Virus record (IMG/VR): IMGVR_UViG_3300009941_000125
Location: 31,540 to 95,539 of that record
Source: a virus
Lineage: Duplodnaviria > Heunggongvirae > Uroviricota > Caudoviricetes
Reading direction: 5' to 3' (one strand)
Length of the DNA stretch: 64,000 nt
Part shown: piece after piece, positions 2,900 to 51,714 of the stretch
Layout of the letters: every line of letters starts with the position of its first letter
Numbering within the stretch: the first letter of the stretch is position 1
Position numbers and translations under genes: made by a program
The notes under the pieces: model-generated
What the model was told of the DNA's origin: nothing
Database searches by the model: none
The model's input: the letters and a program-made list of their open reading frames with translations, nothing else

Positions 2900-3187
2900 T
2901 CACCTCAACTTTTTCATATACTTTTCAAAATCATCTAATTCTATTCTTTTTTTTATAACCCCTTTAGGAACAACAAAGTAATCATGATGCTCTAAAGTTC
3001 TTAATGTTTCTGTCTCCTTAATCGGCATTTCAATGGAATGAGAAAGTTTAACAATCTCATCATCTTCCCAAACAACAAAACCTGCTTGACACATATGGGT
3101 TAACCCACCTTCTTCAAATCCCTTATCACCATGTTCTGTAATATCAGTCCAATAAATAATCTCGAGTCTAGGATTTTTTATAAGCAT
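2900..3187 (-). CDS. hypothetical protein
   Basis: 95-aa ORF. Confidence 0.5.
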   Translation of the reverse strand: MLIKNPRLEIIYWTDITEHGDKGFEEGGLTHMCQAGFVVWEDDEIVKLSHSIEMPIKETETLRTLEHHDYFVVPKGVIKKRIELDDFEKYMKKLR

Positions 3188-3334
3188 TTAACACCTTCAT
3201 TTTTTTTATTTTACGGAACCTTTTAGTTTTTTAAAATCAAGCTTTAACTGTTTTGAGAGAGGAACTTCTTTGGTTTTTACCTTTTTAAATGGTTTAATTT
3301 TCCATTTTTTTAAAGTTTCTTTATTTACCATAAA

Positions 3335-3547
3335 CTATTTAATCTCCTTTTTAAGAGGAGCTTTTTTTACTAACGGTGCTTCAACTTTTTTTATTGGTTG
3401 AGTTTTAACTTCTTTTACATTAGCTTTATTAGAAGCAACAGCTTCTTCTAAACTTTTGATTGCTGTATCAAGAATTCTGCGCTGATCTTTTAGTCTTTCT
3501 AAAATTCTTCCTTGTTCCATGTTAATCTTTCTCCTTTTTGATAGCAT
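3335..3547 (-). CDS. Hypothetical protein; true start probably the internal Met at about 3520.
   Basis: 70-aa ORF. AAGGAG precedes the internal ATG (MEQGRIL...), which sits just after the stop of the upstream NrdD C-terminal ORF. Confidence 0.4.
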   Translation of the reverse strand: MLSKRRKINMEQGRILERLKDQRRILDTAIKSLEEAVASNKANVKEVKTQPIKKVEAPLVKKAPLKKEIK

Positions 3548-3683
3548 AACTGCCTTTTTGTCTATCTTTTAATTCTTCTTGTTTTGAAGGAGACCAATTT
3601 TTAATTTTACTAAAATAGCCTACAATCCTACTCATTCCTTCTACATTGGTTGACCCGCAATGGGGACATTTAACTTGTTTCAT
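3522..3683 (-). CDS. nrdD: Anaerobic ribonucleotide reductase NrdD C-terminal fragment with the second zinc-ribbon CxxC and the glycyl-radical motif; a stand-alone 53-aa ORF.
   Basis: Manual translation gives MKQVKCPHCGSTNVEGMSRIVGYFSKIKNWSPSKQEELKDRQKGSYAIKKEKD with strong RBS AAGAAGGAGATAA. CPHC followed by RIVGY...N..KQEEL..R matches the NrdD C-terminus, where E. coli NrdD ends RVCGYLG...NAGKQEEVKRR. Too short for the ORF track. Confidence 0.75.
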   Translation of the reverse strand: MKQVKCPHCGSTNVEGMSRIVGYFSKIKNWSPSKQEELKDRQKGSYAIKKEKD

Positions 3684-3694
3684 TTATCTCCTTC

Positions 3695-4066
3695 TTATTT
3701 ATAATCAATAATATCTATCTGTTCATGATTCCGTGTTATCTCAATCTCGTCATTCAATTCTGTATTTATATACATATACATTCCTAAATAATCGTTATTT
3801 TTAATACTTGTTTCATCTAATATTTGACATATATTCATAAACCAAATAATAGGGGGAAATGCAATGTTAATTTGGTTGTTCTCTTTAACATCTTTTCCTT
3901 CTGGGCTCTTACAAAACTGAATTAAACACATAAATAAAAACGCTAACGTAAAACTTCCTTTTAATTCAAACTTCACTTTAACACCCCTTTTTTTAAATAG
4001 CAGAGATGGGATTCGAACCCATGACCTGTTGGGTTTTAATAAACTTATTAAATTCTTTTTGAACAT
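3695..4066 (-). CDS. Hypothetical protein; the 5' end is doubtful because it overlaps the tRNA 3' half.
   Basis: 123-aa ORF. The first 23 codons run through the tRNA 3' exon and the endonuclease 3' end, so the real start may be the internal Met near 3931. Confidence 0.3.
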   Translation of the reverse strand: MFKKNLISLLKPNRSWVRIPSLLFKKRGVKVKFELKGSFTLAFLFMCLIQFCKSPEGKDVKENNQINIAFPPIIWFMNICQILDETSIKNNDYLGMYMYINTELNDEIEITRNHEQIDIIDYK

Positions 4067-4607
4067 ATTCTTTATCGTTTCCTCTACTTATATCTTTAAT
4101 TGAATAAGGAATATACTCGCTCTTTTTTATTTCTTTAATTTTTATTCTATCTCTATTTTGAACCTGTTTTACAGAATGTGATTTTGTGATCTTTTTATAA
4201 TGCCAAGGACCGTTCCATAAAATTGCTACTTTTTTATTTAAAATAATAACGTCAGCATCCCATCCATTAAACATATTTTTATTAGTCAAAATATTATCTT
4301 TTCCAAAATGCTTGATACACAAATTTGCAAAATGAATCTCATTCTTACTTCTCTTTATATTAACTTTAGATTTTTTTAAAAATAACTCACGAGCAAATCC
4401 ATTTTTCAACCTAAAGGACATGGAACAACTAAGAGAACAGTATGTGTAATGTTTTCTTTTAGCCAAAAATTCTTTTTTACAATTAGGACAAATCTTTTTA
4501 TAACATTTACATAATTTACATTTTACTTTCTTAGGATCTGATCTTTTATTAACTTTAACTAAAATACCACAAATTATACAAGCTACAATTTTATTATTTG
4601 ATTTCAT
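3993..4607 (-). CDS. Free-standing homing endonuclease with an N-terminal Cys-rich zinc ribbon and a C-terminal Vsr/DUF559-like nuclease domain (commonly annotated as HNH-type).
   Basis: 204 aa with RBS AAGGGAG. N-terminus carries CIICG...CKLCKC...CPNC. C-terminus WDADVIILNKKVAILWNGPWH resembles the (A/V)IE(V)DG..H core of Vsr/DUF559 endonucleases. Its last 12 codons read through the tRNA 3' half. Confidence 0.6.
   Translation of the reverse strand: MKSNNKIVACIICGILVKVNKRSDPKKVKCKLCKCYKKICPNCKKEFLAKRKHYTYCSLSCSMSFRLKNGFARELFLKKSKVNIKRSKNEIHFANLCIKHFGKDNILTNKNMFNGWDADVIILNKKVAILWNGPWHYKKITKSHSVKQVQNRDRIKIKEIKKSEYIPYSIKDISRGNDKEYVQKEFNKFIKTQQVMGSNPISAI
3998..4033 (-). tRNA. tRNA(CAU) 3' half: position 38, anticodon-stem 3' strand, variable loop, T-arm and acceptor.
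   Basis: Minus strand reads C-CCAAC-AGGTC-ATGGG-TTCGAAT-CCCAT-CTCTGCT-A, with a canonical T-loop and a 5-nt AGGTC variable loop. It pairs with the 5' half at 4696..4730 in the anticodon stem (GTTGG/CCAAC) and in 6 of 7 acceptor pairs. Confidence 0.5.
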
Positions 4608-4695
4608 CTTAATTCTCCCTTAAGGAATTGTGGGGCTTGGTGTTAAGGCACCATTGAAAGAGTAATTAATTCTTTCTTAGCCCCAATTATATTTT
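4034..4695 (-). mobile_element. Insertion splitting the tRNA(CAU) gene in the anticodon loop; it carries the homing-endonuclease ORF.
   Basis: 662 bp lie between tRNA positions 36/37 and 38. They contain the endonuclease gene and an 88-nt structured leader (TGGGGCT...AGCCCCA inverted repeat). No guanosine directly precedes the 3' exon and there is no room for a group I core. Confidence 0.5.
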
Positions 4696-4730
4696 ATGAA
4701 CCAACTGAGCTGCCACTGCTCCACCCTGCG
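4696..4730 (-). tRNA. tRNA(CAU) 5' half: acceptor 5' strand, D-arm, anticodon-stem 5' strand and UUCAU of the loop.
   Basis: Minus strand reads CGCAGGG-TG-GAGC-AGTGGCA-GCTC-A-GTTGG-TTCAT, with U8, a 4-bp D-stem and a 7-nt D-loop containing GG. It begins at the nucleotide right after the TGA stop of the methyltransferase gene. Confidence 0.5.
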
Positions 4731-5354
4731 TCACTTTTTAGCTTTTAAAAATAACCATCGCTTAGTCTCTGCTAAGTCGTCAATAGAACATTTAAAATAT
4801 TTACTAACTTGTTCTATTAATGACTCTTTAGTGTAATGTCTGAAATGAGATGGGAAACAACAATTCCCATTAGGTACACTAATAAGTATTTGACCACCAT
4901 TCGCTAACACTCTATGGCATTCTTCTAACGTTCTAAATGGATCAGCTACATGCTCTAACGTTTCAGCCATAATAATAGTATCAAAAGAATAATTAGAAAA
5001 AGGTAACTCTTCTGACCATGCTTGGAATAAAGATATTTTCTTTTGAATCTCTAATGGTTCTTTATTAACGGCTTCTTTTGCTTTTTCTATACACTCTGCT
5101 ACAATATCAATTCCTACTATTTCAAAACCTTTTCTTGCGGCAAGCAATTCAACAATTCCATCAGCACATCCAATATCTAAAATCTTACCTGCTAATCTAG
5201 TTATAAACCAACTAATCCTTTTTGTTTCAATACCATTAGGATGAGCTTCTATAAACTCTTTAGCTTTGCTTTGGTATTGTGTATTAAGAGTCTCAACGAG
5301 CTCTTTATCTACAATCTCATCACTACTAAAATCTTTTTTCCAAATATGCTTCAT
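4731..5354 (-). CDS. Class I SAM-dependent methyltransferase.
   Basis: 207 aa with motif I LDIGCADG and post-I EIVGIDI; IIMAETLEHV and GGQILISVPN follow. Confidence 0.75.
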   Translation of the reverse strand: MKHIWKKDFSSDEIVDKELVETLNTQYQSKAKEFIEAHPNGIETKRISWFITRLAGKILDIGCADGIVELLAARKGFEIVGIDIVAECIEKAKEAVNKEPLEIQKKISLFQAWSEELPFSNYSFDTIIMAETLEHVADPFRTLEECHRVLANGGQILISVPNGNCCFPSHFRHYTKESLIEQVSKYFKCSIDDLAETKRWLFLKAKK

Positions 5355-5584
5355 AATAGTTCTTTTTCTGCTATCTTCATAATTGAATACTTTTTATCCC
5401 CAACTACAATTGCTGGCGGATACTGAAAATTATGAAATGTAAATTCCATTAAGCCTTCTGGTTCATCTATTGATAACCATTTGACTGTATATTTATCAGT
5501 CATTTTCTCAAGCTTCTTTCCAATCTCTTTAGCAAGCTTACATTTCTCACAACCAGCTTTAGTAAATATTAAGACGTTTTGCAT
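5351..5584 (-). CDS. Glutaredoxin/NrdH-like thioredoxin-fold protein.
   Basis: 77 aa with CxxC (CEKC) at the N-terminus of a short alpha/beta protein. It sits near nrdG and nrdD. Confidence 0.55.
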   Translation of the reverse strand: MQNVLIFTKAGCEKCKLAKEIGKKLEKMTDKYTVKWLSIDEPEGLMEFTFHNFQYPPAIVVGDKKYSIMKIAEKELL

Positions 5585-5757
5585 AATTCTTTCTCCAAAC
5601 TACTTAAACTTTTTATTGTTTTTCTATAAATAGATCTCAATTCAGGGGTCAATTCATTCATCATTAATCCAATTTCAAACTTTTCTTGTAAATACCAAAT
5701 ATCAGCTATATCAAATTCTCCATTATCAAAAGATTGAGTATACATTGTCGACTTCAC
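5569..5757 (-). CDS. hypothetical protein
   Basis: 62-aa ORF. Confidence 0.3.
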   Translation of the reverse strand: MKSTMYTQSFDNGEFDIADIWYLQEKFEIGLMMNELTPELRSIYRKTIKSLSSLEKELCKTS

Positions 5758-7172
5758 TTCCTTTTATTAACTTGTCCAACTTTACCACTTGAATATCTTC
5801 TAGGCCATTGATCTTTAACCTCTTTTTGAGTCTCTAGTCTTTCGCCCATCTGTTTTAACTTTTCTTTATCTTCTTTTGAAATCTTACCTTGTTTAATATT
5901 GTCATATAAAGATTTATCTATATCTTTTTTTATTTCAACTTTATAGCCAGCTTTCTTTAAAGCACTTTCCACTTTTTTAATATTTTCTATAGTAGGAGTA
6001 AACGTTAAATGAGAAGATCCCCCTCCCTCTCTAAAGTGAACACCTAATTTCTTTCCTAATTCATTAGGATCGGCAAATCCTCTACTATTATCATGAAAAA
6101 TTGTAGCATCATACCAACCATTATTAGCTTTCCAAAAATCGATATCCCCATAAAACCCAATCGGTTTGCCATATAAATCTCTTTTTTCTTCTACAGAAAT
6201 AATAACTGGATATAATTGTTTAGAAACTTCTTTCTTTCTTTTAACAATATTTGTTAATTTATCACTTGAGGCTCTCTCTTTTATTAATCTATGGTGCTCT
6301 TCTTCTAGTTGCTTTAGTTTCTTTTTCAAATCTTCTTTACCTGTTTTGGCAGAAGATTTACGAACAAATACAGGTATTTTTGTAAACCCTAATTCCTTTT
6401 GAGCAATAAACCTATGAATTCCATCCATAATTTCACCATTTTCATCAATTACTATACCTGGTATGTCTCTATCTTGTCCATAAGATTCCATTAAACTAGA
6501 AATTATAGTAATATCTTCATCAAGATTCTTGTAATCACCAATATTATATTCAAAATCTATCATTTCTATTGGAACAATTTTTTGTACAAACTTATCATCT
6601 TTTTTCATATCAAAAATTACATCACTTGATGCTTCTGGTTCTGATTGAATATCTTGAATTTCTTCTGCAGAAAATGTTAAAGAATTATTATCTTCATCGT
6701 TTTTAGCTTCAGAGCCAGCCCAATAAGGTTTGCCTAATTTACTAACTCTTTGGTGTCTCTTTTGAGCTTTCTCAAAGTCATCTCTTTTCTCTATAACCTC
6801 TAAACTCTCTTTGTTTATACCATAATCCTCTGCGAGGGCTCTACGAACAAACTCTGGAACATTTTTAAGATCACCATCAAAATAAAATACTGGTACCATT
6901 TCAGCTTCCAATTCTTTGAGTGCTGCGTATCTGTGATGACCATCTACAAGTCCTCCTTTATCCATAAACAAAGGTTTGATCTCTCCAGTCTCTTGAATTT
7001 CTTTCTTAATCGCGGCTACCTTGCCCGCATCTAAATCTCTATTCACCGAAAAATTAGGCTTAATGTCATCAAGCTTAGACAATCTTTCTTCTATAGTAGG
7101 GTAAAACACCCTACTATTTAAGATTTTATCCTCTAGCGGATTTGTCGATTTAGATATAACTTTTAAAGTCAT
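5754..7172 (-). CDS. Protein with tandem ParB/Srx-like nuclease domains and a HicA-like C-terminal region.
   Basis: 472 aa with two ParB N-domain motifs (GLVDGHHRYAALKEL and IMDGIHRFIAQKELG). The C-terminal GGGSSHLTFTPT...IKK resembles the HicA fold. Confidence 0.6.
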   Translation of the reverse strand: MTLKVISKSTNPLEDKILNSRVFYPTIEERLSKLDDIKPNFSVNRDLDAGKVAAIKKEIQETGEIKPLFMDKGGLVDGHHRYAALKELEAEMVPVFYFDGDLKNVPEFVRRALAEDYGINKESLEVIEKRDDFEKAQKRHQRVSKLGKPYWAGSEAKNDEDNNSLTFSAEEIQDIQSEPEASSDVIFDMKKDDKFVQKIVPIEMIDFEYNIGDYKNLDEDITIISSLMESYGQDRDIPGIVIDENGEIMDGIHRFIAQKELGFTKIPVFVRKSSAKTGKEDLKKKLKQLEEEHHRLIKERASSDKLTNIVKRKKEVSKQLYPVIISVEEKRDLYGKPIGFYGDIDFWKANNGWYDATIFHDNSRGFADPNELGKKLGVHFREGGGSSHLTFTPTIENIKKVESALKKAGYKVEIKKDIDKSLYDNIKQGKISKEDKEKLKQMGERLETQKEVKDQWPRRYSSGKVGQVNKRK

Positions 7173-7173
7173 T

Positions 7174-7527
7174 TTAGTTTACTGTTTGTACCTGTTCTTC
7201 TGATTTTTCTTTCTTAGGATTAGCCGATCTAACAGTAATTACTCTACCTTCGAAATCTTTTTCATTAGCAGCAGCAATAACTTCAGCTTCTTTTCCAAGT
7301 TCAATATCAATAAAACCAAAGCCCCTTGATCTAGCAGTCCCTTTATCTCTTATAATTCTTGTTGAATAAACTTCACAAAACTGTTCGAAAAATTTACCCA
7401 ATTTATATTCGTTAATCTTCCAAGGAATGTTTCCTACATAAACTGTATCACAAGGTTGACTGGTCTCTCCAACCTCCCCATCATAACTTCTTTCAACTTG
7501 ATCTAATTTCATTTTTTCATTTTCCAT
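7174..7527 (-). CDS. RRM-domain RNA-binding protein.
   Basis: 117 aa with RNP-2 VYVGNI and RNP-1 RGFGFIDI at canonical spacing. Confidence 0.75.
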   Translation of the reverse strand: MENEKMKLDQVERSYDGEVGETSQPCDTVYVGNIPWKINEYKLGKFFEQFCEVYSTRIIRDKGTARSRGFGFIDIELGKEAEVIAAANEKDFEGRVITVRSANPKKEKSEEQVQTVN

Positions 7528-7565
7528 TCTTTTATTTTCCCCTTTTTTTTATTTAATAACTCTCA

Positions 7566-8045
7566 TTAAATAGAGATGTTATCTTCATCGGTGGAATCAG
7601 TCTCGGTGCTATTAGGTCCCGATACGGATTCTTCTTTTTCTTCTGAAGCGACTTGATCAACCGTATCTTCAACGGGTGTATTTGTTGCTTCTTCAACTTC
7701 TTGATTTTCCTCTTCTGCTGGACTTTCTTCTTCTGTACTCTCAATCTCAACCGTTTCTTCTTCCGGCGTAATGATCTTTTCTGCTTCCTCAACATTACTT
7801 TCGTCAATATATTCAACAGCTTTTTCTTTAAACGGCTCTGGAACTTCATATTGTTCTGTAGGTTTACATTGCACACTAGTTGATACCTCCTCGACTTGTT
7901 CATCAAAACTTTCAATTGCAGTTAATAAAATTCTAACTAAAGTATCTGTAGGAAATTTTCTGATGCATTTTCTTTTACCATTCTCTTTCTTTTCCCATAA
8001 TTTTAAGAACCCTTTTGATTTGCTATAAGAAACTTCGTAACTCAT
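7566..8045 (-). CDS. Hypothetical protein with a highly acidic C-terminal tail.
   Basis: 159 aa with a basic N-terminus and an E/D-rich C-terminus. The overlapping K/R-rich 120-aa ORF at 7553..7915 in another frame is treated as an artefact. Confidence 0.45.
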   Translation of the reverse strand: MSYEVSYSKSKGFLKLWEKKENGKRKCIRKFPTDTLVRILLTAIESFDEQVEEVSTSVQCKPTEQYEVPEPFKEKAVEYIDESNVEEAEKIITPEEETVEIESTEEESPAEEENQEVEEATNTPVEDTVDQVASEEKEESVSGPNSTETDSTDEDNISI

Positions 8046-8476
8046 TCACTATCCTCCTCTTTTTCAAGTTGAATATACACTCCAATTTCTTGCTTAACTG
8101 GTTTATCCTTACTTATATCAACTATCTTTGTTGGATTATCAATTCTAATTCCATGCATAGATATTGTTTCACCAACACAACCACCAACACTATAGTGATA
8201 ATAAAAAATTTCGTTTAAATATTTTTCAATTTTATTAATCCAATTTTTAATTATCTTAGGTAGGAATAATAAAACCTCTAGACATTTAACTTTAAAATCC
8301 AACCAAATTAAACTTGCAGCATCCTCAATTGGTCGTTTTCTTTCAATTTTTTCAGATGAAATATCCTTTTCTTTTGTTTCAAATACTAAAAAATATTTAA
8401 GTGGTTTTTTATTTTCTTTTTCCCACTCATCATCTATTATAACCGCAATACCATTTTCGACATTAACTCTCATCAT
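8042..8476 (-). CDS. hypothetical protein
   Basis: 144-aa ORF. Confidence 0.45.
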   Translation of the reverse strand: MMRVNVENGIAVIIDDEWEKENKKPLKYFLVFETKEKDISSEKIERKRPIEDAASLIWLDFKVKCLEVLLFLPKIIKNWINKIEKYLNEIFYYHYSVGGCVGETISMHGIRIDNPTKIVDISKDKPVKQEIGVYIQLEKEEDSE

Positions 8477-8488
8477 GACAACTCCTCT

Positions 8489-8683
8489 TTACTTACTAAC
8501 TGTTTGTGAAAATAACAATCGGCATAATATTAATAAACCTAACGCTTCAAGAAGCGAAATTGCTCTTAATCCAAAAATACTAGGCATTAATCCATTCCAT
8601 AAAAATTGAATCGCGAAAGGAAATAGCAATAAAATAAGAACCATAAGACCTAAACCTAAAATTCCACCAATAACATCATTCAT
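8489..8683 (-). CDS. Small hydrophobic membrane protein.
   Basis: 64 aa with two predicted TM stretches. Confidence 0.35.
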   Translation of the reverse strand: MNDVIGGILGLGLMVLILLLFPFAIQFLWNGLMPSIFGLRAISLLEALGLLILCRLLFSQTVSK

Positions 8684-9257
8684 TTTCCCACTCTCCTTTA
8701 CTTGACTTTCTATACAAAATTTGATTACTTGAACCTCTAAACTTGAGATTCAGATCTTGCCTGGCTTGAACGAAGGGTCCATCTACTATTACATCCACAA
8801 TATCCTTGATGTCTTGCGGTATATCTTTGAAAAGATCGCCCGTATAAAGCCAAATCTTCTTTCCTTTTTCTTTTGCCCATTGGCTTATTGCTTTTACCGC
8901 TTGTGGTTGTAATAATGGTTCACCTCCAGATAAAATTATCCAATCTACCCAATCAATTAATCTTGTTAAATAATCTGTAATAGCTTTATAGTCTAACCAA
9001 AAACCTCTTTCCCATTGTAATTTAGCTACTTCTGGATTATGGCAACCTTTACAATGCTTATCGCAACCTTGAAACCAAATAATTGCTGCTAAGCTTTCTG
9101 CATCTTGCAATGACTCTGTAATTCCTGCTATCCTAAACATAACATTTTCTTCTGTAAAATTTTTATCTTTAGGCTCTGGAACTCTTAACTTTTGTGCGTA
9201 CTCTTTGAAAGAAACTTTCTTTGTCATTGATCGTCGTCCTCTATTAAATGTCTCCAT
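8676..9257 (-). CDS. nrdG: Anaerobic ribonucleotide reductase activating protein, a radical-SAM enzyme.
   Basis: 193 aa with WFQGCDKHCKGCHN (CxxxCxxC) and a GGEPLL glycine-rich SAM motif. Confidence 0.85.
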   Translation of the reverse strand: METFNRGRRSMTKKVSFKEYAQKLRVPEPKDKNFTEENVMFRIAGITESLQDAESLAAIIWFQGCDKHCKGCHNPEVAKLQWERGFWLDYKAITDYLTRLIDWVDWIILSGGEPLLQPQAVKAISQWAKEKGKKIWLYTGDLFKDIPQDIKDIVDVIVDGPFVQARQDLNLKFRGSSNQILYRKSSKGEWENE

Positions 9258-9502
9258 GATTCAATTTTATTGCCGTGAAAAACTTCTTCTACTTGACAAC
9301 TGATAAAATATGCTGATTCTTTTCGTAACATTTCAAAATAATCAATATATTCCTCTATAGTATCAGGAAAATCACTATAATCAATAATATCTTTATAAAT
9401 GAATAAATGCCCGCTGTACTCTGCGACATGAGATATACAAACATTATGATTAATAATGTCGCAAAAAATATCAATGTATGCATCATTTAATCTTGGTTCC
9501 AT
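9224..9502 (-). CDS. hypothetical protein
   Basis: 92-aa ORF. Confidence 0.4.
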   Translation of the reverse strand: MEPRLNDAYIDIFCDIINHNVCISHVAEYSGHLFIYKDIIDYSDFPDTIEEYIDYFEMLRKESAYFISCQVEEVFHGNKIESWRHLIEDDDQ

Positions 9503-9509
9503 ATATAAC

Positions 9510-9689
9510 TCACTTCTCTATAATTACTTCTCTTAATTGATATAAGCCATCATCTTCGTCTCTTTCGCTAAGAATCATTTTAATTTTGTAATCTTCTAAA
9601 TTAAGTTGTCTTAAAACGCCGCCATCTAAATCAACAATCCCTATTATCTTTTTATTGAAGCCTTCTTTTAATGTAAAAAAACATCTCAT
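9510..9689 (-). CDS. Small hypothetical protein.
   Basis: 59-aa ORF from manual translation (MRCFFTLKEGFNKK...); below the track cutoff. Confidence 0.3.
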   Translation of the reverse strand: MRCFFTLKEGFNKKIIGIVDLDGGVLRQLNLEDYKIKMILSERDEDDGLYQLREVIIEK

Positions 9690-9711
9690 TTTTAACTTTC
9701 TTTATATTTTT

Positions 9712-9784
9712 AGCCGAGAGAAGGACTTGAACCCTCAACCGATTGATTACAAATCAATTGCTCTTCCAATTGAGCTATCCCGGC
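9712..9784 (-). tRNA. tRNA-Thr(UGU)
   Basis: 73-nt cloverleaf on the minus strand: GCCGGGA-TA-GCTC-AATTGGAA-GAGC-A-ATTGA-TTTGTAA-TCAAT-CGGTT-GAGGG-TTCAAGT-CCTTC-TCTCGGC-T. All stems pair and the anticodon is TGT. Confidence 0.9.
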
Positions 9785-9867
9785 GTAAGATATAATAACT
9801 ATCATATTTAACACGATAGTGTGTCTGGTGTCACCCGGGTGTTGTCTGAATAACAACCTATAAGACT

Positions 9868-11850
9868 CTAAGAGTCTCTATTCCATCCTCTACTTGTCTT
9901 TTTACAATCATTACAAAAAGTAAACTCAGGACTAATTACTAATTGAGCGCACTGGGTATTATCCCATACCTTCTTTATTATATTTTCAATACCTTTAGGA
10001 TGAGGTTTTTGCTCTCCTAAAAATATATGCGTTATAGCTCCTGATTCTATTAACGGATTAAACCTTGCTTGACCCACAATCCTATCGATTATGGAAATTT
10101 CGGCGTTCGCGGCGTAATGCACAGAATTAGTATAATAAACCACACCACTATCCAAGCTACCTCTGACATAATCCTTAGCCTCCTTAAAAGCATGCAAATC
10201 AACTTTTGCTAATCTATAAGCTGCGCTTTCGGCGGGGCTTTCTTCGAGTGTAACTTTGAGTTTGTTTTCTTTTCCTAATTCTTTAGCTTTAAGATACATG
10301 GAACTAACAAGCTTTAATCCTAATTTATAAGATTCTTCGTCTTCGTGTAATTGCTTACCTGTGATTCTCTGTATACATTCATTTAATCCAATAATACCAA
10401 TAATATAAGTAGCTGCCTCTAAATCAACATAAGGTCTACCATCTTTAGCCTTCATACCAATTTGCCAAAGGGGTAATCCTTCTTCCATTAACCAACCAAT
10501 AAATCTTTTTTTCTGTAAATGAGCTTTCATAGCAATATCCATAGTTCTCATAACTTCTTTTACAGTTTTATCGTAATTTCCTTCAGCTCTATATGCAGCT
10601 TGAGGAAGATTTATTGATACATTTTGAAAGCCACAAAATCTCATTGATTCTGGATGTTCGATCATATAATTATCATCAATAACAGTTCTTAATCTACAAC
10701 ATGCAGCTAAAGTAACTTCATCTCTATCAAATACAAAATAAGGAGATCCATTCTCGGAAGCAATTTCACAAGCAAATGCAAATAATTTATATTGTTCTTT
10801 ATCTGTAAATGTTTCTGCACTTATATGAAAATCACATTTAGGAAAAGAAAAGACTCTTCCATAACAATCACCTTCTCGCCATACTTCTAACATTGCTTTT
10901 GCAAACATTTGAGCTTCTTTTTCAAAATCTCCATATGTTTCTTTTAAATACTTTCCACCAGGACCTATTGCTTTAATATTTTTAAGATAACTGGGAATAC
11001 CAGTGTGAATATTAAAATCTAAAAATAAGGTTTGCCCACCTCTACTAAAAGCATTCTGACTTGCTGAAAAAATTAAATGCTGAGCTTCTTGTTTCATTCT
11101 TTCAAAGGAAAGTCCTCGCACTAATGGTGCATAGAAAATATTAACATAACCAATTCCTAGCGCTCCTGCGTAATAAGCTTGCATAGAAGCTAGAAAAGTA
11201 TTTAAATGCCCTGTCAAAGTTCTTGCGTGACTTGCTGGCTTACTAGCCGAATTAAGATTCTCTAATTCTAAACCATATTTCTTAATATACTCCAAAGAAT
11301 GAGAACTACAATAAACTCTAGTTATATAACCTAAATCGTGTAAATGTACTTTACCTGTTAAATGAGCTTCAGCTACTTCTTTAGAAAATACTCTGCTTAA
11401 TGCATACTGCTTGAATGCTGCTTCAGAAATTGCTAAACTAACTGCTTCAGGGTTATTCGCCGAAATATTACTATTCTCAGATGTCTTACTAAAGATATAT
11501 TGTTCTAAATCATAAGTAGGGATACCTAAGACTTGTTGTTTCCTTAGCTTTCCATTTAATCCTTTTTCAAATAAAACATCATCAATAATACTACGAATTG
11601 TTCCTGTACTAATATTTTTTATTTCAGTCGCAAAGATTCTCGTTTCAACTTCAGTCGCAATAGCTCTAGCCTCTTTCATATCTAATCCAGCTTCTTCCTC
11701 TAATGATTCGATAACTTTCTTTTTATCCCAATCACTAAGCATTCCCTCAGAAAGAGAAGATACTAGTAAACTTAAATCTGTTGTGTCGTTTGAAGAAGCT
11801 TTGTTCTTCTTGAAAACTTTAATTGTCATTCTGCTCCCTTTCCAATCCAA
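9868..11850 (-). CDS. nrdD: Anaerobic (class III) ribonucleoside-triphosphate reductase; the main body lacks the glycyl-radical C-terminus.
   Basis: 660 aa with an ATP-cone-like N-terminus and a large NrdD barrel. It ends ...FTFCNDCKKTSRGWNRDS just after the first CxxC. No second CxxC or RVxGY follows in any frame downstream. Confidence 0.9.
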   Translation of the reverse strand: MDWKGSRMTIKVFKKNKASSNDTTDLSLLVSSLSEGMLSDWDKKKVIESLEEEAGLDMKEARAIATEVETRIFATEIKNISTGTIRSIIDDVLFEKGLNGKLRKQQVLGIPTYDLEQYIFSKTSENSNISANNPEAVSLAISEAAFKQYALSRVFSKEVAEAHLTGKVHLHDLGYITRVYCSSHSLEYIKKYGLELENLNSASKPASHARTLTGHLNTFLASMQAYYAGALGIGYVNIFYAPLVRGLSFERMKQEAQHLIFSASQNAFSRGGQTLFLDFNIHTGIPSYLKNIKAIGPGGKYLKETYGDFEKEAQMFAKAMLEVWREGDCYGRVFSFPKCDFHISAETFTDKEQYKLFAFACEIASENGSPYFVFDRDEVTLAACCRLRTVIDDNYMIEHPESMRFCGFQNVSINLPQAAYRAEGNYDKTVKEVMRTMDIAMKAHLQKKRFIGWLMEEGLPLWQIGMKAKDGRPYVDLEAATYIIGIIGLNECIQRITGKQLHEDEESYKLGLKLVSSMYLKAKELGKENKLKVTLEESPAESAAYRLAKVDLHAFKEAKDYVRGSLDSGVVYYTNSVHYAANAEISIIDRIVGQARFNPLIESGAITHIFLGEQKPHPKGIENIIKKVWDNTQCAQLVISPEFTFCNDCKKTSRGWNRDS

Positions 11851-30282: not shown

Positions 30283-31482
30283 TTAACCCTTTATAACAGC
30301 AATCGGTTCTAATTTAACTAAAATATCAACCAAATCTTCTTGTTGCTTCATTACCTCATCAATATTTTTATATGAGCTCGGTGCTTCATCTAAATCTTTC
30401 TGAGTTCTTACCCCATGAATAATTCCTTTGTTATTTAGCTTTTTAAGTTCCTCTTTAAGACTTAGCTCTCTAACAGCTTGCTTTCTCCCCATACACCTAC
30501 CAGCTCCATGAGAACAACTCATAAAACTAAGAGATTCCCCTTTTCCTTTAACTATATAAGAAGCTGTTCCCATTGATCCAGGAATAATACCAATAGTGTT
30601 TTCTCTTGCTAGAGTCGCCCCCTTTCTATGTACCATAACGTTCTCTCCAAAATGACTTTCCATTGTAACGTAATTATGAGCAATATTTATAACATCTACA
30701 GAATATTCATAAGAAGTTATATTAGAAAATAAACTCATATTTTCTTCAAAAATGTCTAGTATTCTGCACATCATTAGATGCCTATTAGCCAAAGCAAAAT
30801 CAACACAATATTGCATTTCTCTTAAATAAGTTTTAGCCTCTTCAGTTTCTAAAGGAAGAAAAGCTAATTCCCATTCTTTAGGAACTTTTGAATGCCACCT
30901 CTCATTTAATTTTATCGCAATATCATTATGATGTTTAGCTACTCTATATCCTAGATTTCTACTCCCTGAGTGAAGCATAATCCAAATATGACCATCTGAT
31001 CCTTTAAGAATATCTATAAAATGATTCCCTCCTCCGAGGGTTCCTAATTGCTTTAAAGCTGAATTATACTGCTCCGAAATAACGGGAAAATCGTGAGAAC
31101 AAAAATCATGCTTAATTGGTGCTTCTGGCATTAAACTTTCATCTTGTTTTTCCTTTTGGTGGTTCCCTCCGACAGGTATAACTTTTCTAATTCCTTTCAT
31201 TATCTTTTTAAGTGTTTCAGTATCTATCTCAGTTAAAGATGTCTTAACTGCACACATCCCACACCCAATATCAACGCCAACTGCATTAGGAATTACTACC
31301 CTTTTCGTAGCAATAACTCCACCAATTGGCATTCCATAACCTTGATGAGCATCTGGCATTAAAGCTACGTGCTTATGAATAAAAGGTAGATTAGCCAAGT
31401 TTTTGGCTTGCTTTAAAGCGCCTTCTTCAATATCTTTAACCCATGATTTTATTGGTTTATTTTCTGTTGTTATTACTTCCAT
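30283..31482 (-). CDS. rtcB: RNA 3'-phosphate/2',3'-cyclic phosphate ligase RtcB.
   Basis: 399 aa with NAVGVDIGCGM, HQGYGMPIGGV, GGGNHFIDIL, HSGSRNLG and SCSHGAGR, which are the hallmark RtcB metal and GMP-His motifs. RBS is AAAGGAGGGGAAA. Confidence 0.9.
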   Translation of the reverse strand: MEVITTENKPIKSWVKDIEEGALKQAKNLANLPFIHKHVALMPDAHQGYGMPIGGVIATKRVVIPNAVGVDIGCGMCAVKTSLTEIDTETLKKIMKGIRKVIPVGGNHQKEKQDESLMPEAPIKHDFCSHDFPVISEQYNSALKQLGTLGGGNHFIDILKGSDGHIWIMLHSGSRNLGYRVAKHHNDIAIKLNERWHSKVPKEWELAFLPLETEEAKTYLREMQYCVDFALANRHLMMCRILDIFEENMSLFSNITSYEYSVDVINIAHNYVTMESHFGENVMVHRKGATLARENTIGIIPGSMGTASYIVKGKGESLSFMSCSHGAGRCMGRKQAVRELSLKEELKKLNNKGIIHGVRTQKDLDEAPSSYKNIDEVMKQQEDLVDILVKLEPIAVIKG

Positions 31483-31550
31483 TTTCCCCTCCTTTATTTA
31501 ATTTATTAATAATACAGAGCAGGAAAACGGTTTATTTGGCGTTTTTTATG

Positions 31551-41364: not shown

Positions 41365-44300
41365 TTAATTTGTACACTGTTGTTTTACCTTTTTTAAATA
41401 TTTAGACTCATCATAATCATTAAAACACTTAAAGGCACCAGCTTTATTTAAAGATTCTATAACTCTCTTATTAACAACCCTTCTATTAACTTTATCTAAA
41501 AAATCATCAAAACTATCGTAAGGAGCCATTTTAACTATATCCGTTGAAGCCTTTAATCCTATATTTTTAATAAAAGATAATCCATAACGTATTCCTCCGC
41601 TATCAATAGAAAAATAATCTGAACTTTTATTAACATTAGGGTTTAATAGTTCATACCCCATTCTTTTTACTTCTCTTTTATAATCGTTTAATGTTTCTTC
41701 TTTACTAGCATTATTTAAAATAGAAATTAAAAATTCTAATGGATAATATTTTTTTAAATATAAACATTGATAACTAATAATACTATAAGCAACTGCATGA
41801 GCTCTATTAAATGCATAATCCATAAAAGATTCTATAAACTTAAATATTTCACTAGCTTGATCTTTATCTACTCCATTATCAATACATTTTTTTACAAATA
41901 TCTCTTTTGCCTCATCAAACAAATATCCTTTTCCAGAAGCAACTAACTTGGCACCTTTAGATGTTATTTTCCTCAAATCATCAGCTTCTTCATATGTATA
42001 TCCTGCAACTTCTTTTGCTATTCTCATAGAATCTTCTTGAAAAACAACAAGACCATAAGTTCTTTTTAATGGCTTTTTAAGACTAGGATGAAGATAATCT
42101 ATTTTTTCCATTCCATTTTTTCTTTTAGCATATTTTTTAGCATAACCAGACTTTAATGCAGCAGGTCTATGTAATGCATTAACCGCAACTAAATGCTCAA
42201 ACGTTTCAACCCCTATTTCTCTCAACCAATCCTTAATAGAGCGACTTTCAAATTGAAATACACCAGTTGTCTTACCTAAATCAGCCATTTTTAAAATTTC
42301 TTTATCGTTAAGTGATAAATCATAAAATAATGTTTTGTATAAATCCTTTTTCTTTCTTTTTTTAATCAATTCAATAGTTTGTCCAATAACGCTTAATGTA
42401 GAAAGGCCTAAACAATCTAATTTCATCATTTTAATAGCAGAAATACATTTTATATTATCACTACCCTCATCCCATCCTGTAACAATTTCATTTTTGTATA
42501 CGCATAAAGGAACGTGGTCGTAAAGTGTCTCATTTGAAATTACAATTCCAGCAGCATGTGTTGAAAAGTGTCTCACTTGCCCTTCTAATCTTAAAGCAAT
42601 TTCCCATATTTCAGGATATTTCTCAATGTACCTTCTCACGTCGGGCATCGCCTGGGCCTCTTTTAAACTAAATTCATATGGAATATATTTAGTTGCAGCA
42701 ATAACCTCAGGAAGAGGCTTTTCATAAACTCTGGCTAAATCCTTTAATAACCCTCTGCATTTAAATGTACCAAAAGCTCCTATTGAAGAAACCCTATCTT
42801 TTCCATATTTACCAACTAAATATTCTTTAATTTTACTTCTATTTTTAGAATCAAAATCTATATCAATATCAGGCATTTCAGTCCTACCAACATTAATAAA
42901 TCTAGCAAATAACAAATCATGTTTTATTGGATCTACTTTGGTAATATCTAATAAATAGCATAATAAACTACCGCAAGCTGAACCCCTTCCAACGCCAACG
43001 ATTATTTTATTATTTTGTGCCCATTTTACAACATCATAAATAATATAAATAAAATCTATCAACCCTTTGTTTTTAATAATATCATATTCATATTTAATTC
43101 TTTCTTTATACGCTTTATGTTCACTTTTATTAATTTTTTTCTTTATCTCATTCCATCTCTCATTAATAACCTTTTTAATTATTATATCCACATTAATATC
43201 TTTAAATTTAGGCATTTTTTGACTTTCTATATCTATTTCAACATTAACACTATTAGCTATCTCTACAGTATTATCTAAAGCCTCATTCACATCATCTGAG
43301 TAATCTTTACCTATAGTATTAATAAAGTCATCATATGTCTCTTTTCTTGTCTTTAAATGAAACCCACTGTTATCTAACCTATCTTCTTCTAACTTGCTAA
43401 TAGTAATTTTTCTATTTAGCATAGTTAATGTTCGTTGTGCAATATTATCTTCTTTATGAATATAATGAACATCGTTAGTGCATACTAATTTTATTTTATA
43501 TTTATGAGCCAATTCTATTATTTTTTTATTAGCTGTAATTTGATCTTCAAATTTATGGGGTTGGATCTCTAAATAGAAATTATCACCAAACATTTTCTTA
43601 TATTTAGTTACTGTATCAATAACATCTTTTTCAGTAGAATGAATTATCTTCTCAGATATTTCACCAAAAATACAAGCGCTTAAAACAATTAATCCCTTTT
43701 TGTATTTATTTATTAAATCCAAATCGACTCTAGGTCTGTAATAAAAACCCTCAATGTTTCCTAAAGAAGATATTTTAAGAAGATTTTTATAACCAATTTC
43801 ATTTTTAGCTAATAAAATTAAATGATTTCTTTTTTTTCTTTCTTTTTTTAATTTGTTTCTCTCTTCAATGTTATCCCCTTCTTTTTTGTCTTCTAATCCT
43901 TTTACGGTCATATCTTTTACAAGATAAACCTCTATTCCGGGAATAAATTTGATATTTAATTCTTTTGATTTTATATAAGCCCTTAGCGTACTATTCATAT
44001 TACCATGTTCAGTTAAAGCGATTGATTTTTGACCTATTTCTTTACAATGTTTTAGTATATCCCTAACCTTTCCCATTCCATCTAATAATGAAAACTCTGA
44101 ATGACAATGTAAATTAACAAAATTATCATCAATAATTTCTGTAGAAGCTTTTGGAAAAACCTTTTTAGATTTTTTATTTATTTCTTTTCTAACAAAATCA
44201 TAAACATCATTAATAGATCCATGTATAAATTCTTCTTTTCTACATTCTAAATCAACAAAACCATCTTTTCTTTTATTATAATCATCATATTTTACATCTA

Positions 44301-44739
44301 ATAACTTATCTCTCTTTATATATTCTTCAAAAACAAAAGAAGCTGGAATTATAAATCCTTTAGCTTGAGAATTATTTAAAGAAACAAAAAACGTATTGTG
44401 CGGACTCTTTTCTGCTTCTTTTCTACGAGATTTGTTATCCATAAATTGAAGTTTATACCTATCTTCTTTAACTAAACACTCAAGCTCAATAAAAAAACTT
44501 TCTCCATTTTCCATTTCTACTAAAAAATCTTGTATATATGCGTTATCTATATTATTATGTTTAATATATTTTTTTAAATCATTAGGGAGATTATCATAAA
44601 AATCACATTCTTGTATTGTACCGTATACGTAAGGATTATTTCCCTTCCAATTAATTTTTCCAATTTTTAACAACCTACGAAGAAGTTTTTTTCTTCTAGG
44701 CTTATCTTCTAAAAGTTTTATTTTATCTTCATTTTTCAT
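41365..44739 (-). CDS. dnaE: DNA polymerase III alpha subunit (DnaE-like) with an N-terminal PHP domain.
   Basis: 1124 aa with the PHP start VNLHCHSEFSLLDG and the palm motifs VGVGRGSACGSLLCYLLDITKVDP and FARFINVGRTEMPDIDIDF. Confidence 0.9.
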   Translation of the reverse strand: MKNEDKIKLLEDKPRRKKLLRRLLKIGKINWKGNNPYVYGTIQECDFYDNLPNDLKKYIKHNNIDNAYIQDFLVEMENGESFFIELECLVKEDRYKLQFMDNKSRRKEAEKSPHNTFFVSLNNSQAKGFIIPASFVFEEYIKRDKLLDVKYDDYNKRKDGFVDLECRKEEFIHGSINDVYDFVRKEINKKSKKVFPKASTEIIDDNFVNLHCHSEFSLLDGMGKVRDILKHCKEIGQKSIALTEHGNMNSTLRAYIKSKELNIKFIPGIEVYLVKDMTVKGLEDKKEGDNIEERNKLKKERKKRNHLILLAKNEIGYKNLLKISSLGNIEGFYYRPRVDLDLINKYKKGLIVLSACIFGEISEKIIHSTEKDVIDTVTKYKKMFGDNFYLEIQPHKFEDQITANKKIIELAHKYKIKLVCTNDVHYIHKEDNIAQRTLTMLNRKITISKLEEDRLDNSGFHLKTRKETYDDFINTIGKDYSDDVNEALDNTVEIANSVNVEIDIESQKMPKFKDINVDIIIKKVINERWNEIKKKINKSEHKAYKERIKYEYDIIKNKGLIDFIYIIYDVVKWAQNNKIIVGVGRGSACGSLLCYLLDITKVDPIKHDLLFARFINVGRTEMPDIDIDFDSKNRSKIKEYLVGKYGKDRVSSIGAFGTFKCRGLLKDLARVYEKPLPEVIAATKYIPYEFSLKEAQAMPDVRRYIEKYPEIWEIALRLEGQVRHFSTHAAGIVISNETLYDHVPLCVYKNEIVTGWDEGSDNIKCISAIKMMKLDCLGLSTLSVIGQTIELIKKRKKKDLYKTLFYDLSLNDKEILKMADLGKTTGVFQFESRSIKDWLREIGVETFEHLVAVNALHRPAALKSGYAKKYAKRKNGMEKIDYLHPSLKKPLKRTYGLVVFQEDSMRIAKEVAGYTYEEADDLRKITSKGAKLVASGKGYLFDEAKEIFVKKCIDNGVDKDQASEIFKFIESFMDYAFNRAHAVAYSIISYQCLYLKKYYPLEFLISILNNASKEETLNDYKREVKRMGYELLNPNVNKSSDYFSIDSGGIRYGLSFIKNIGLKASTDIVKMAPYDSFDDFLDKVNRRVVNKRVIESLNKAGAFKCFNDYDESKYLKKVKQQCTN

Positions 44740-50793: not shown

Positions 50794-51714
50794 TTAATAT
50801 ATTAACTCCATTTCATCAATACCTTCATTTATTTGTTCTTCTGTCATATCCCCAATATCTTTAATATCCGCATTTTTATATTTAAAGCTAAAAATCTTAA
50901 TTTTCCCTTTTAGTTTTTTAATAATTTTTTCTTTAGCTAATTTACCGGCTTTATCATTATCTACAGCGATAATAACTCTGTCAAATCTTCTTAATATAGT
51001 TCTTTCATGATATTCAGACAAATTACTACCTTGAATTGCAACAGCACACCTTATTCCAGCTTGAAATGCTTTTAAAACATCAAAATGACCCTCTACAATA
51101 ATTACGTCTTTGCTTATTTTTTCAACCAAATGTAATCCATATAATATTAAATGTTTTTTATATCCATTTTGAGGAATCAATGGATAATATTTTCTTTTTG
51201 AATCAGCAATTGGTCTTGCTAAAACAGCAATTAATTTTCCATTTTCATCTCTAATAGGAATTGTAATATTATTATTATAAAAACCTATTTCAAACTGCTT
51301 TAAAATATTTTCGCTAAACCCTCTTTTTATCATATAATCATAATTGTTATAATCAAAGCCACTTAATATATTTTCATCAATTTCTTCATTTAATTCAATT
51401 TTATGTGTCTTTGAATAATTAATATCATTTAGTTCTTCATTTAATCTATCTAATTGCGTATTTTTATCATCACTATCATTATTAATTAAATCTTCGGCGC
51501 TAGCTCTACCAACGTTTTCAAGTTTTGATATTAAATCAATAAAATCTCCAGCGCCACAACCAGCAAAACAAATATATTTACCTGTTTTTAAATTAATTGA
51601 AAAAGAAGGGTTCTTATCATCATGTAACGGGCAACAACATAATAACTCATCCCCCCTTAATATTCCTTTTTCTAAATTATATTTTTCTAATATTTTATAA
51701 TAATCAACAGACAT
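50794..51714 (-). CDS. dnaG: DNA primase (DnaG-type) with a CHC2 zinc finger and a TOPRIM domain.
   Basis: 306 aa with CCPLHDDKNPSFSIN...CFAGCG and IIVEGHFDVLKAF...AVDNDKAG. Confidence 0.85.
   Translation of the reverse strand: MSVDYYKILEKYNLEKGILRGDELLCCCPLHDDKNPSFSINLKTGKYICFAGCGAGDFIDLISKLENVGRASAEDLINNDSDDKNTQLDRLNEELNDINYSKTHKIELNEEIDENILSGFDYNNYDYMIKRGFSENILKQFEIGFYNNNITIPIRDENGKLIAVLARPIADSKRKYYPLIPQNGYKKHLILYGLHLVEKISKDVIIVEGHFDVLKAFQAGIRCAVAIQGSNLSEYHERTILRRFDRVIIAVDNDKAGKLAKEKIIKKLKGKIKIFSFKYKNADIKDIGDMTEEQINEGIDEMELIY

Follow-up and report, generated by a model that had tools for sequence, protein, structure and literature searches.

Homing endonuclease genes are thought, as far as we are aware, to survive inside other genes only where an intron or intein takes them out of the gene product, and free-standing ones stay intergenic. 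Free-standing homing endonucleases cut alleles without their gene, and repair of the break then copies the gene in along with the DNA around it. SegB of phage T4 is a GIY-YIG enzyme; I-Bth0305I reportedly resides in a recA-like gene, within a group I intron, and not at tRNA genes. Archaeal introns and split tRNAs with a bulge-helix-bulge (BHB) motif are joined by RtcB, and some rRNA introns carry homing endonuclease genes. The present study concerns a 64,000-nucleotide stretch of a Caudoviricetes virus (the window; positions 31,540 to 95,539 of IMG/VR record IMGVR_UViG_3300009941_000125), in which an initiator-like tRNA(CAU) gene lies in two pieces on either side of a homing-endonuclease-like open reading frame (ORF). 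The two pieces are halves of one gene, of which a related phage has an unbroken copy at the same locus. The arrangement is probably an intron-less homing endonuclease gene lodged after position 36 or 37 in the anticodon loop of a tRNA gene that is most likely a pseudogene.

Several described systems are relevant to this locus. I-Ssp6803I is the endonuclease of a group I intron that lies in the tRNA-fMet gene of Synechocystis (Bonocora and Shub 2001, as cited in PMC3984707; structure in PMC3384342). I-Bth0305I founded the EDxHD family of homing endonucleases, some of which are encoded in introns or inteins and others by free-standing genes (PMC3384342; Taylor et al. 2011, PMC3239194, as described there). 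SegB is free-standing in the T4 tRNA cluster and prefers cutting inside tRNA genes, according to the account of Brok-Volchanskaya et al. (2008, PMC2330249) given in PMC8421152. In collaborative homing, known from F-CphI beside the intron-containing psbA of cyanophage S-PM2 and from T4 mobE/I-TevIII, an intron occupies, and hence protects, the target site of a neighbouring free-standing endonuclease, and in the published model the endonuclease gene can be carried into this site by illegitimate recombination (PMC3984707, PMC6083498, PMC2790892).

Two halves of an initiator-like tRNA(CAU) gene

A 72-nt tRNA(CAU) is encoded on the minus strand in two halves (4730..4695 and 4033..3998) with 661 nt between them (4694..4034). 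The 5' half, CGCAGGGTGGAGCAGTGGCAGCTCAGTTGGTTCATA (4730..4695, anticodon CAT at 4698..4696), begins at the very next base after the TGA of a methyltransferase gene (4733..4731), and the 3' half is CCCAACAGGTCATGGGTTCGAATCCCATCTCTGCTA (4033..3998). A first-pass annotation, made from the letters alone, had described a 5' half right behind the methyltransferase TGA and a matching 3' half about 700 bp downstream that combine into a 72-nt tRNA with anticodon CAU, and the sequence and ARAGORN agree with it on both points. With introns allowed, the check which that annotation had itself proposed, ARAGORN returned tRNA-Met(cat) c[3998,4730] i(38,661), the sole intron-containing call in the 64 kb; the split tRNA was called neither by default ARAGORN nor by Rfam at gathering score, both of which gave only tRNA-Thr and tRNA-Tyr in the window. 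The insert had been put at 662 bp and is in fact 661 nt long. The junction lies after position 36 or 37, as annotated, and is ambiguous owing to an A run that permits both registers; ARAGORN places it one base later, giving the loop UUCAUAA, and either joined version (loop UUCAUAC or UUCAUAA) yields a full cloverleaf. The predicted exon-exon junction of the joined tRNA reads ...GGTTCATA followed directly by CCCAAC.... All 11 inter-half base pairs are standard except the 1x72 mismatch, and shuffled half-pairs never produced a tRNA call (0/500).

The same arrangement was recovered, 100% identical, in independent assemblies (JGI 3300009860; Logan SRR24667915), and mis-assembly is therefore rejected as the source of the split. 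The loci L002 and L003 match the window at 100% identity across 6.6 kb and are therefore uninformative about selection on the tRNA halves. A megablast search of 3000..9000 against GenBank phages gave no match; when the tRNA halves were used as exact patterns against IMG/VR, there were two chance matches in coding DNA (L007 and L008) and none for the 3' half.

For the tRNA type, the joined sequence was aligned with nine tRNA(CAU) genes flanking homologs of the inserted ORF (n = 10). The cloverleaf is paired in 93.8% of the cells of this alignment, with double changes in 15 of 21 pairs, and no shuffle and no slid register approaches the observed pairing. Positions 1:72 are unpaired in 9/10 sequences, and 11:24 is A:U in 8/10. 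The window tRNA carries the initiator hallmarks of a CAU anticodon, C1xU72 and A11:U24; the last two had already been pointed out as initiator-like in the first-pass annotation, and both are present in the joined sequence. Its anticodon stem, GUUGG/CCAAC, has U:A at 29:41, so that the three G:C pairs 29-31:39-41 are incomplete, and the tRNA of the related locus L092 is likewise without the third G:C pair, with A:U at 29:41.

Intact, interrupted and deleted alleles in related phages

The methyltransferase was used as an anchor for finding the same locus elsewhere, and only three relatives were detected in 5.8 billion proteins. In L092 (methyltransferase 53% identity), an intact 73-nt tRNA(CAU), CGCGGGGTGGAGCAATGGTGGCTCGTCAGGTTCATACCCTGAAGGCTGTGGGTTCAAATCCCATCCCCGCAAC, with the loop TTCATAC, stands directly after the methyltransferase stop, supplying at the same place the intron-less homologue in a related phage with which a comparison had been suggested. 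Relative to this tRNA, the window halves show compensatory double changes at 27:43, 28:42, 29:41 and 4:69, and these both-sided changes in four inter-half pairs indicate that the two pieces evolved as one helix-forming gene. Given the L092 loop, the mature loop in the window would be UUCAUA plus C, with the insert after position 36 or 37; the 37/38 junction is one of the two registers giving the L092-type loop UUCAUAC, and 36/37 fits equally.

The closest relative is L089, whose methyltransferase shows 70% identity and whose neighbouring genes are ordered alike on either side, the downstream VKFELKG... gene among them. Between its methyltransferase stop and the next gene, L089 has only CGTAAGTCCCATCCCTGCAATCTAAAAAGAGG, about 20 nt that correspond to the 3' strand of the T-stem and to the acceptor strand. 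Three states of the locus are seen, intact, interrupted and deleted, and the last of these, in L089, implies that the tRNA is dispensable for these phages. L090 and L091 (methyltransferase 62% identity) were rejected as sources of alleles, showing a glycosyltransferase context and no tRNA, and a methyltransferase search of IMG/VR returned a single irrelevant match (L001, 26%). In L089, a tRNA-Pro(UGG) gene (4996-5073) lies about 75 nt past the end of the downstream gene (4664-4921), and the window has none in the matching stretch; tRNA content changes fast among these phages.

The inserted ORF and its family

The insert consists of a leader and the ORF P0001, whose last 13 codons and stop are supplied by the tRNA 3' half and 3 nt beyond it. 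The earlier observation that the reading frame runs through the 3' exon is borne out, with the ORF (4607..3993) ending in TAA just past the tRNA, and DNA-level homology to other family copies ends at the exon junction. The N-terminal zinc-ribbon region presumably binds DNA. For the C-terminal domain, the family consensus is RSKNE...FNGWDADVII...ILWNGxWHY...HS..Q..RD..K..E, and its Vsr-like fold is nearest to the DUF559-like 3hrl, Vsr and the homing endonuclease I-Bth0305I; at this level of fold the annotation of a zinc ribbon joined to a Vsr/DUF559-type endonuclease was right. A profile search against PDB reached 3r3p weakly (E=0.37), a single-sequence search of the ORF against PDB gave no match, and the nuclease domain matched no family in Pfam, NCBIfam or PHROGs. 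The match to a PHROG 'HNH endonuclease' spans the zinc-ribbon region only, and there was no match to a GIY-YIG domain, the fold of the ORF being Vsr-like. The structure and sequence of the leader resembled nothing upstream of homologs in any fetched locus and had no Rfam match.

More than 1,100 homologs of the ORF were found. Loci were fetched from IMG/VR (80), metagenomes (80) and metagenome-assembled genomes (10), with a few contigs added by exact-protein look-up, and contained 133 distinct copies. Nearly all of these sit in tRNA arrays of large phages, many on contigs of 100-435 kb, and several tRNAs accompany the gene in most loci. A tRNA(CAU) gene directly adjoins the endonuclease in 82 of the 133 loci (63 downstream, 26 upstream, 7 both), a minimum given that some degenerate tRNA(CAU) genes go uncalled, against a baseline of 21% for tRNA(CAU) among all tRNAs in the 133 loci. 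GenBank phages yielded one match among 50,697 records, the Prevotella megaphage Lak-C1, and there too the setting is a tRNA array. This family is large and undescribed, and in large and huge phages it is linked to tRNA(CAU) genes of the initiator-like kind.

In dozens of loci, the ORF ends without its own stop codon and enters tRNA nucleotide 1 at a conserved junction, ...AAATAT(AT) followed by the tRNA (for example ...AAATATAT followed by TGCGGGG...), and in other loci it enters the CCA end of an opposite-strand tRNA. The window junction, AAGTTTATTAAAA before CCCAAC, matches that of L010, AAGTTTATAAAAT before GGCGGG, at the same position of the cassette, and is then followed by tRNA position 38, not 1. 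No tRNA split across the ORF was found among the other ~170 endonuclease loci. Manual reading revealed 3'-only tRNA fragments directly behind two family members (L085 ~1840-1897 and L103 ~943-990), consisting of the T-arm and acceptor strand, with CCA in L103, and no matching 5' half exists anywhere in either locus. Debris of this sort is what one would expect of a cassette that now and then inserts into, or wears away, tRNA genes. A home-made screen for T-arms without a local 5' acceptor was too unspecific, leaving the window itself unflagged, and was dropped.

Several further observations concern the family. RNase P processing at the downstream tRNA would cut the endonuclease mRNA before its stop and, speculatively, could limit expression. 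Odd tRNA(CAU) genes stand beside homologs in L045 (1956-2043), L062 (1962-2049), L069 (1957-2045), L079 (1875-1964), L099 (from ~700) and L183 (Lak-C1, ~1850-1930); they have an initiator-like acceptor with a 1x72 mismatch and either measure 82-92 nt, their variable arm being long, or carry a degenerate D-arm missed by ARAGORN, and a class-II-like tRNA(CAU) is a non-standard type. The Lak-C1 homolog (L183 1000-1900; MK250029.1 459248-462559, an unannotated record) is interrupted in frame by several TAG codons, which fall at conserved positions (NE*FNIF, for instance, against NEQF or NEEF in relatives). Stop-codon recoding is reportedly found in Lak phages, which these codons fit.

Splicing signals and group I introns at related loci

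On 3800..4900, the group I model RF00028 gave no match at gathering score and none at E<=10. As a positive control, it scores 74-96 bits on tRNA introns in L020, L025, L027 and L082. No GUGAA(C) guide sequence occurs in the 661 nt, the sole match being the Watson-Crick AUGAA at the start codon; U36 is the last exon base in one register. A terminal G is also absent, the insert ending in ...GUUUAUUAAAA, whereas the L027 intron does end in G. The first-pass annotation had held that no G precedes the 3' exon, which stands, and had put the nearest one 14 nt upstream, which does not, as G4044 lies 11 nt before the exon. It was likewise right that little non-coding sequence is present, although the leader measures 87 nt (4694..4608) and not about 88; no more than these 87 nt lie outside the conserved coding sequence, which reaches the exon boundary. 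Its main judgement, that a group I intron is unlikely, is upheld both by the Infernal-type check it had proposed around the locus, in which no core appeared at E<=10 with a model that finds four related introns, and by the missing guide and terminal G.

Other routes of excision were looked for as well. On the same interval, Rfam at E<=10 gave nothing above chance level, and no small self-cleaving ribozyme (hammerhead, twister, HDV or other) was matched. No BHB motif was recognised: there is no AUGA or GUGA near the 3' end of the insert to pair with positions 33-36 (UCAU), the fold of a mini-precursor shows none, and the ends of the insert pair weakly (-4.8 kcal/mol). In a weak test for separate transcription, 3600..5500 contained no minus-strand promoter-like site and no terminator, and the trailer of the 5' half and the leader of the 3' half show no complementarity. 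No EndA splicing endonuclease was detected among the ORFs scanned (10 large and 3 local only). The window encodes a DnaE-type Pol III alpha and a DnaB helicase, which make the host bacterial in type, and we know of no tRNA splicing endonuclease in bacteria. RtcB is common in phages, where it serves in tRNA repair. The RtcB gene noted in the first-pass annotation is indeed in the same genome (31482..30283, E=1.5e-111), and phage and bacterial RtcB has been linked to repair of cleaved tRNAs (PMC8421152).

The group I introns that served as positive control offer a clue to the target site of the family. All four are ORF-less (RF00028, 74-96 bits; L027 829-1067, L020 1955-2240, L082 811-1047 and L025 691-919) and interrupt genes for tRNA-Met(CAU), tRNA-Gln(CUG) and tRNA-Asn(GUU) that belong to tRNA arrays of large, uncultivated phages, and three of the four intron loci directly adjoin an endonuclease homolog. 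The tRNA-Met intron of L027 follows U36, and a family member begins 35 nt downstream of it; in L020 and L082, a family member is paired with an intron-containing tRNA-Gln. By analogy, the layout in L027, L020 and L082 is that of a collaborative-homing arrangement. The window gene sits at the site (36/37 or 37/38) that is occupied by a group I intron in a related locus, without an intron around it. Separately, L005 (2403-2683; also L006 795-1075) has a tRNA-Arg(ACG) with a 204-nt intervening sequence, the middle of which (…caatcctgagccaagcc…gaaggtgcagagactata…) resembles the L027 group I core, and Rfam reported nothing there at E<=0.001. The 'introns' that ARAGORN called in L048-L057, L176, L070 and L005 were not accepted as group I, being unsupported by Rfam, and those of the L048 type are plain degenerate tRNAs.

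Origin and fate of the interrupted gene

A bare endonuclease gene in the anticodon loop, the reading put forward above as probable, can be set out as follows. The enzyme would cut tRNA(CAU) genes in or near the anticodon loop, and repair of the break in this lineage may have put the endonuclease gene into the cut site itself. Such placement would provide complete linkage to the target and immunity from self-cleavage, and double-strand-break repair could let the element home into the intact alleles that co-infecting relatives such as L092 carry. The cost would be the tRNA, one that the deletion in L089 suggests is affordable, and this deletion may represent the loss stage of an invade-decay-loss cycle. 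As no means of RNA excision was recognised in the sequence, the interrupted tRNA is probably non-functional. The first-pass annotation had left the choice between a tRNA inactivated by endonuclease homing and an unconventional split tRNA; inactivation is favoured by the empty and deleted alleles, the free-standing family and the L085 and L103 fragments, and a split mended by RtcB is unsupported, with no BHB motif, scarcely any pairing of the ends and, in a weak test, no promoter for the 3' half.

Some observations weigh against the bare-gene reading. The insertion is nucleotide-exact, with no tRNA bases lost or duplicated, as for a true intron and less expected of a one-off illegitimate insertion. 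Both halves are undamaged, and all copies are 100% identical, so that they give no measure of decay or purifying selection. The leader folds into a stable Y-shaped structure, and the phage encodes RtcB. The putative target site and the tRNA's loss of function, moreover, are both inferred from the sequence.

The insert might be what is left of a mobile group I intron, similar in kind to the cyanobacterial tRNA-fMet/I-Ssp6803I one, that lost its ribozyme core and kept the endonuclease ORF. This is unlikely, even though the insertion site is that of the L027 tRNA-Met intron (after U36), the published tRNA-fMet intron is also in the anticodon region (Bonocora and Shub 2001, as cited in PMC3984707) and the structured leader could be a leftover helix. 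Neither an RF00028 match at E<=10 nor a guide sequence nor a terminal G is found, the leader resembles nothing in related loci, and the coding sequence meets the 3' exon where free-standing copies meet a tRNA, so that a deletion would need to have stopped exactly there. The halves could also derive from different genes, if two deletions rearranged a tRNA(CAU)-leader-endonuclease-tRNA(CAU) series. Seven distinct loci do have tRNA(CAU) on both sides of the endonuclease, with leaders of 10-110 nt after the upstream tRNA that resemble the 87 nt here. The prospect is nevertheless remote, since both deletions would have to be exact, all 11 inter-half pairs form, the anticodon stem differs from that of L092 by three compensatory pairs, flanking tRNA pairs elsewhere are of differing types and L092 has a single tRNA at the locus.

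The remaining alternatives would preserve the tRNA. A genuine unconventional intron, its 661 nt excised by a protein endonuclease or an unrecognised RNA element and its ends joined by RtcB into a working initiator-like tRNA, is improbable. It fits the exact insertion at 36/37 or 37/38, the latter being the canonical archaeal and eukaryal tRNA intron site, the intact halves, the RtcB gene in the same genome and the stable leader structure (z=-3.05), but against it stands the lack of a BHB motif, with insert ends pairing at -4.8 kcal/mol, and of any self-cleaving ribozyme family at E<=10. The host, to judge from DnaE and DnaB, is bacterial, and we know of no splicing endonuclease in bacteria; none of the ~170 other endonuclease loci shows such a split, and the closest relative, L089, simply lost the tRNA. 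RtcB itself is widespread in phages as a tRNA repair enzyme (see also PMC8421152). A protein-coding anticodon-loop intron with neither a group I/II ribozyme nor a BHB motif, which the structured leader or a phage or host nuclease might cleave and RtcB seal, is very improbable. It is barely credible that the halves are transcribed separately and cooperate or are joined in trans, as in Nanoarchaeum: two intact halves 661 nt apart and the presence of RtcB would suit this, whereas no minus-strand promoter-like site precedes the 3' half, which lies within the ORF, the trailer of the 5' half is not complementary to the leader of the 3' half and the host is bacterial in type.

Coordinates and neighbouring genes

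The features of the locus are collected in Table 1. A 123-aa ORF (3695..4066) that overlaps the tRNA 3' half was rejected as a spurious extension of the 93-aa downstream gene, on the basis of gene calls on L002 and L003 and of the L089 sequence. Elsewhere in the window, the minus strand carries an anaerobic ribonucleotide reductase-like gene, recognised by sequence, with a neighbouring candidate activase (8676-11850), the DnaE-type Pol III alpha gene (41365-44739) and the DnaB gene (51704-52933). The relative of the activase in L089 matches Radical_SAM and Fer4_12, and a small ORF (3522..3683) matches the NRDD family in precomputed Pfam results. The anaerobic reductase together with DnaE and DnaB suggests a large phage of an anaerobic bacterial host. 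In addition, a 117-aa RRM_1 domain protein (7174-7527, minus strand), kept in L089, is encoded upstream of a ParB_N-like gene.

Table 1. Features of the interrupted tRNA(CAU) locus, with related features elsewhere (window positions unless a locus is named)
Feature	Positions	Strand	Evidence or remark
Downstream flanking gene, 93 aa, GTG start	3695..3976	-	Gene calls on L002/L003; conserved in L089
Homing-endonuclease-like ORF P0001, 204 aa	3993..4607	-	Homologous part ends ~4034
tRNA(CAU) 3' half, positions 38-73: C38, anticodon stem 3' strand, variable loop, T-arm, acceptor 3' strand, A73	3998..4033	-	ARAGORN intron mode, alignment
Insertion, leader plus endonuclease coding sequence	4034..4694	-	661 nt; register may slide 1 nt, A's flanking both junctions
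Vsr-like PD-(D/E)xK nuclease domain, residues 86-190	4038..4352	-	Invariant E90, D117, D119, H136, D153, E159
N-terminal Cys-rich region (CxxC/FCS-type zinc-ribbon), family-variable length	4413..4607	-	Alignment; weak MYM/FCS zinc finger matches; beta-hairpins in model
Non-coding leader, 87 nt; GGGAG ribosome-binding site at 4619..4615	4608..4694	-	Sequence
Y-shaped three-helix junction in leader	4631..4685	-	RNAfold -24 kcal/mol, z=-3.05, 1/200 shuffles as stable
tRNA(CAU) 5' half, positions 1-37: acceptor 5' strand, D-arm, anticodon stem 5' strand, loop UUCAUA	4695..4730	-	Sequence, ARAGORN intron mode, alignment with L092 and other initiator-like phage tRNAs
SAM-dependent methyltransferase gene, stop abuts tRNA position 1	4731..5354	-	Pfam; anchor for finding empty-site and deleted alleles
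RtcB RNA ligase gene	30283..31482	-	Pfam PF01139 E=1.5e-111; context, link to split tRNA unsupported
Loci with stop-less ORF running into tRNA	L010 1956/1958; L014 1953; L040 1954; L045 1956; ~40 others		

Comparison with known systems

The significance of the locus depends on which reading holds. If the tRNA were spliced, bacterial viruses would have a way of processing RNA that is new for them, enzymatic tRNA splicing being so far known only in archaea and eukaryotes, and the phage would still make a working initiator-like tRNA. The archaeal BHB system is similar in the possible 37/38 position, in the long protein-coding insert in a structural RNA gene and in the RtcB gene of the genome; it differs in that the window has no BHB motif, replication machinery bacterial in type and no splicing endonuclease identified in the ORFs scanned. 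On the bare-gene reading, the empty, invaded and lost alleles would form a natural three-state series for models of mobile-intron origin and of the shaping of phage tRNA arrays by selfish nucleases. Furthermore, the Vsr-like endonucleases of this family may serve as rare-cutting nucleases.

Among endonucleases at initiator tRNA genes, I-Ssp6803I resembles the window gene in being a PD-(D/E)xK superfamily endonuclease encoded in the anticodon region of an initiator tRNA(CAU) gene, but it belongs to a self-splicing group I intron, is a classical PD-(D/E)xK tetramer of ~150 aa and is cyanobacterial. The window gene, in contrast, has no ribozyme, combines the Vsr-like branch with zinc-ribbon modules and lies in a phage genome, and no sequence similarity between the two was detected. 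A Vsr-like fold is shared with I-Bth0305I, the sequence relationship being below significance. The active-site pattern is GWDAD...ILWNGxWHY...RD..K..E in the window family and GWN...IEVNG...KD in I-Bth0305I, the E of 'IEVNG' aligning with the L of 'ILWNG', and with this difference in catalytic pattern the window family may be either a member of the EDxHD family or a sister lineage.

A functional parallel is SegB, likewise a free-standing gene in a phage tRNA array that drives the inheritance of itself and of the neighbouring tRNA region, which provides a working model for the family. By this analogy, the family looks like a Vsr-fold counterpart of SegB aimed at initiator-like tRNA(CAU) genes. 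SegB lies between tRNA genes and interrupts none, whereas the window family has a different fold and a frame ending inside the neighbouring tRNA, and the window copy interrupts its tRNA. In the collaborative-homing model, the endonuclease lands within the intron, giving rise to a mobile intron; in the window, it would have landed in a bare target site, where nothing restores the RNA. As such, the locus may represent a missing intermediate, with an endonuclease gene of the free-standing type standing bare in an anticodon loop where related loci carry a group I intron.

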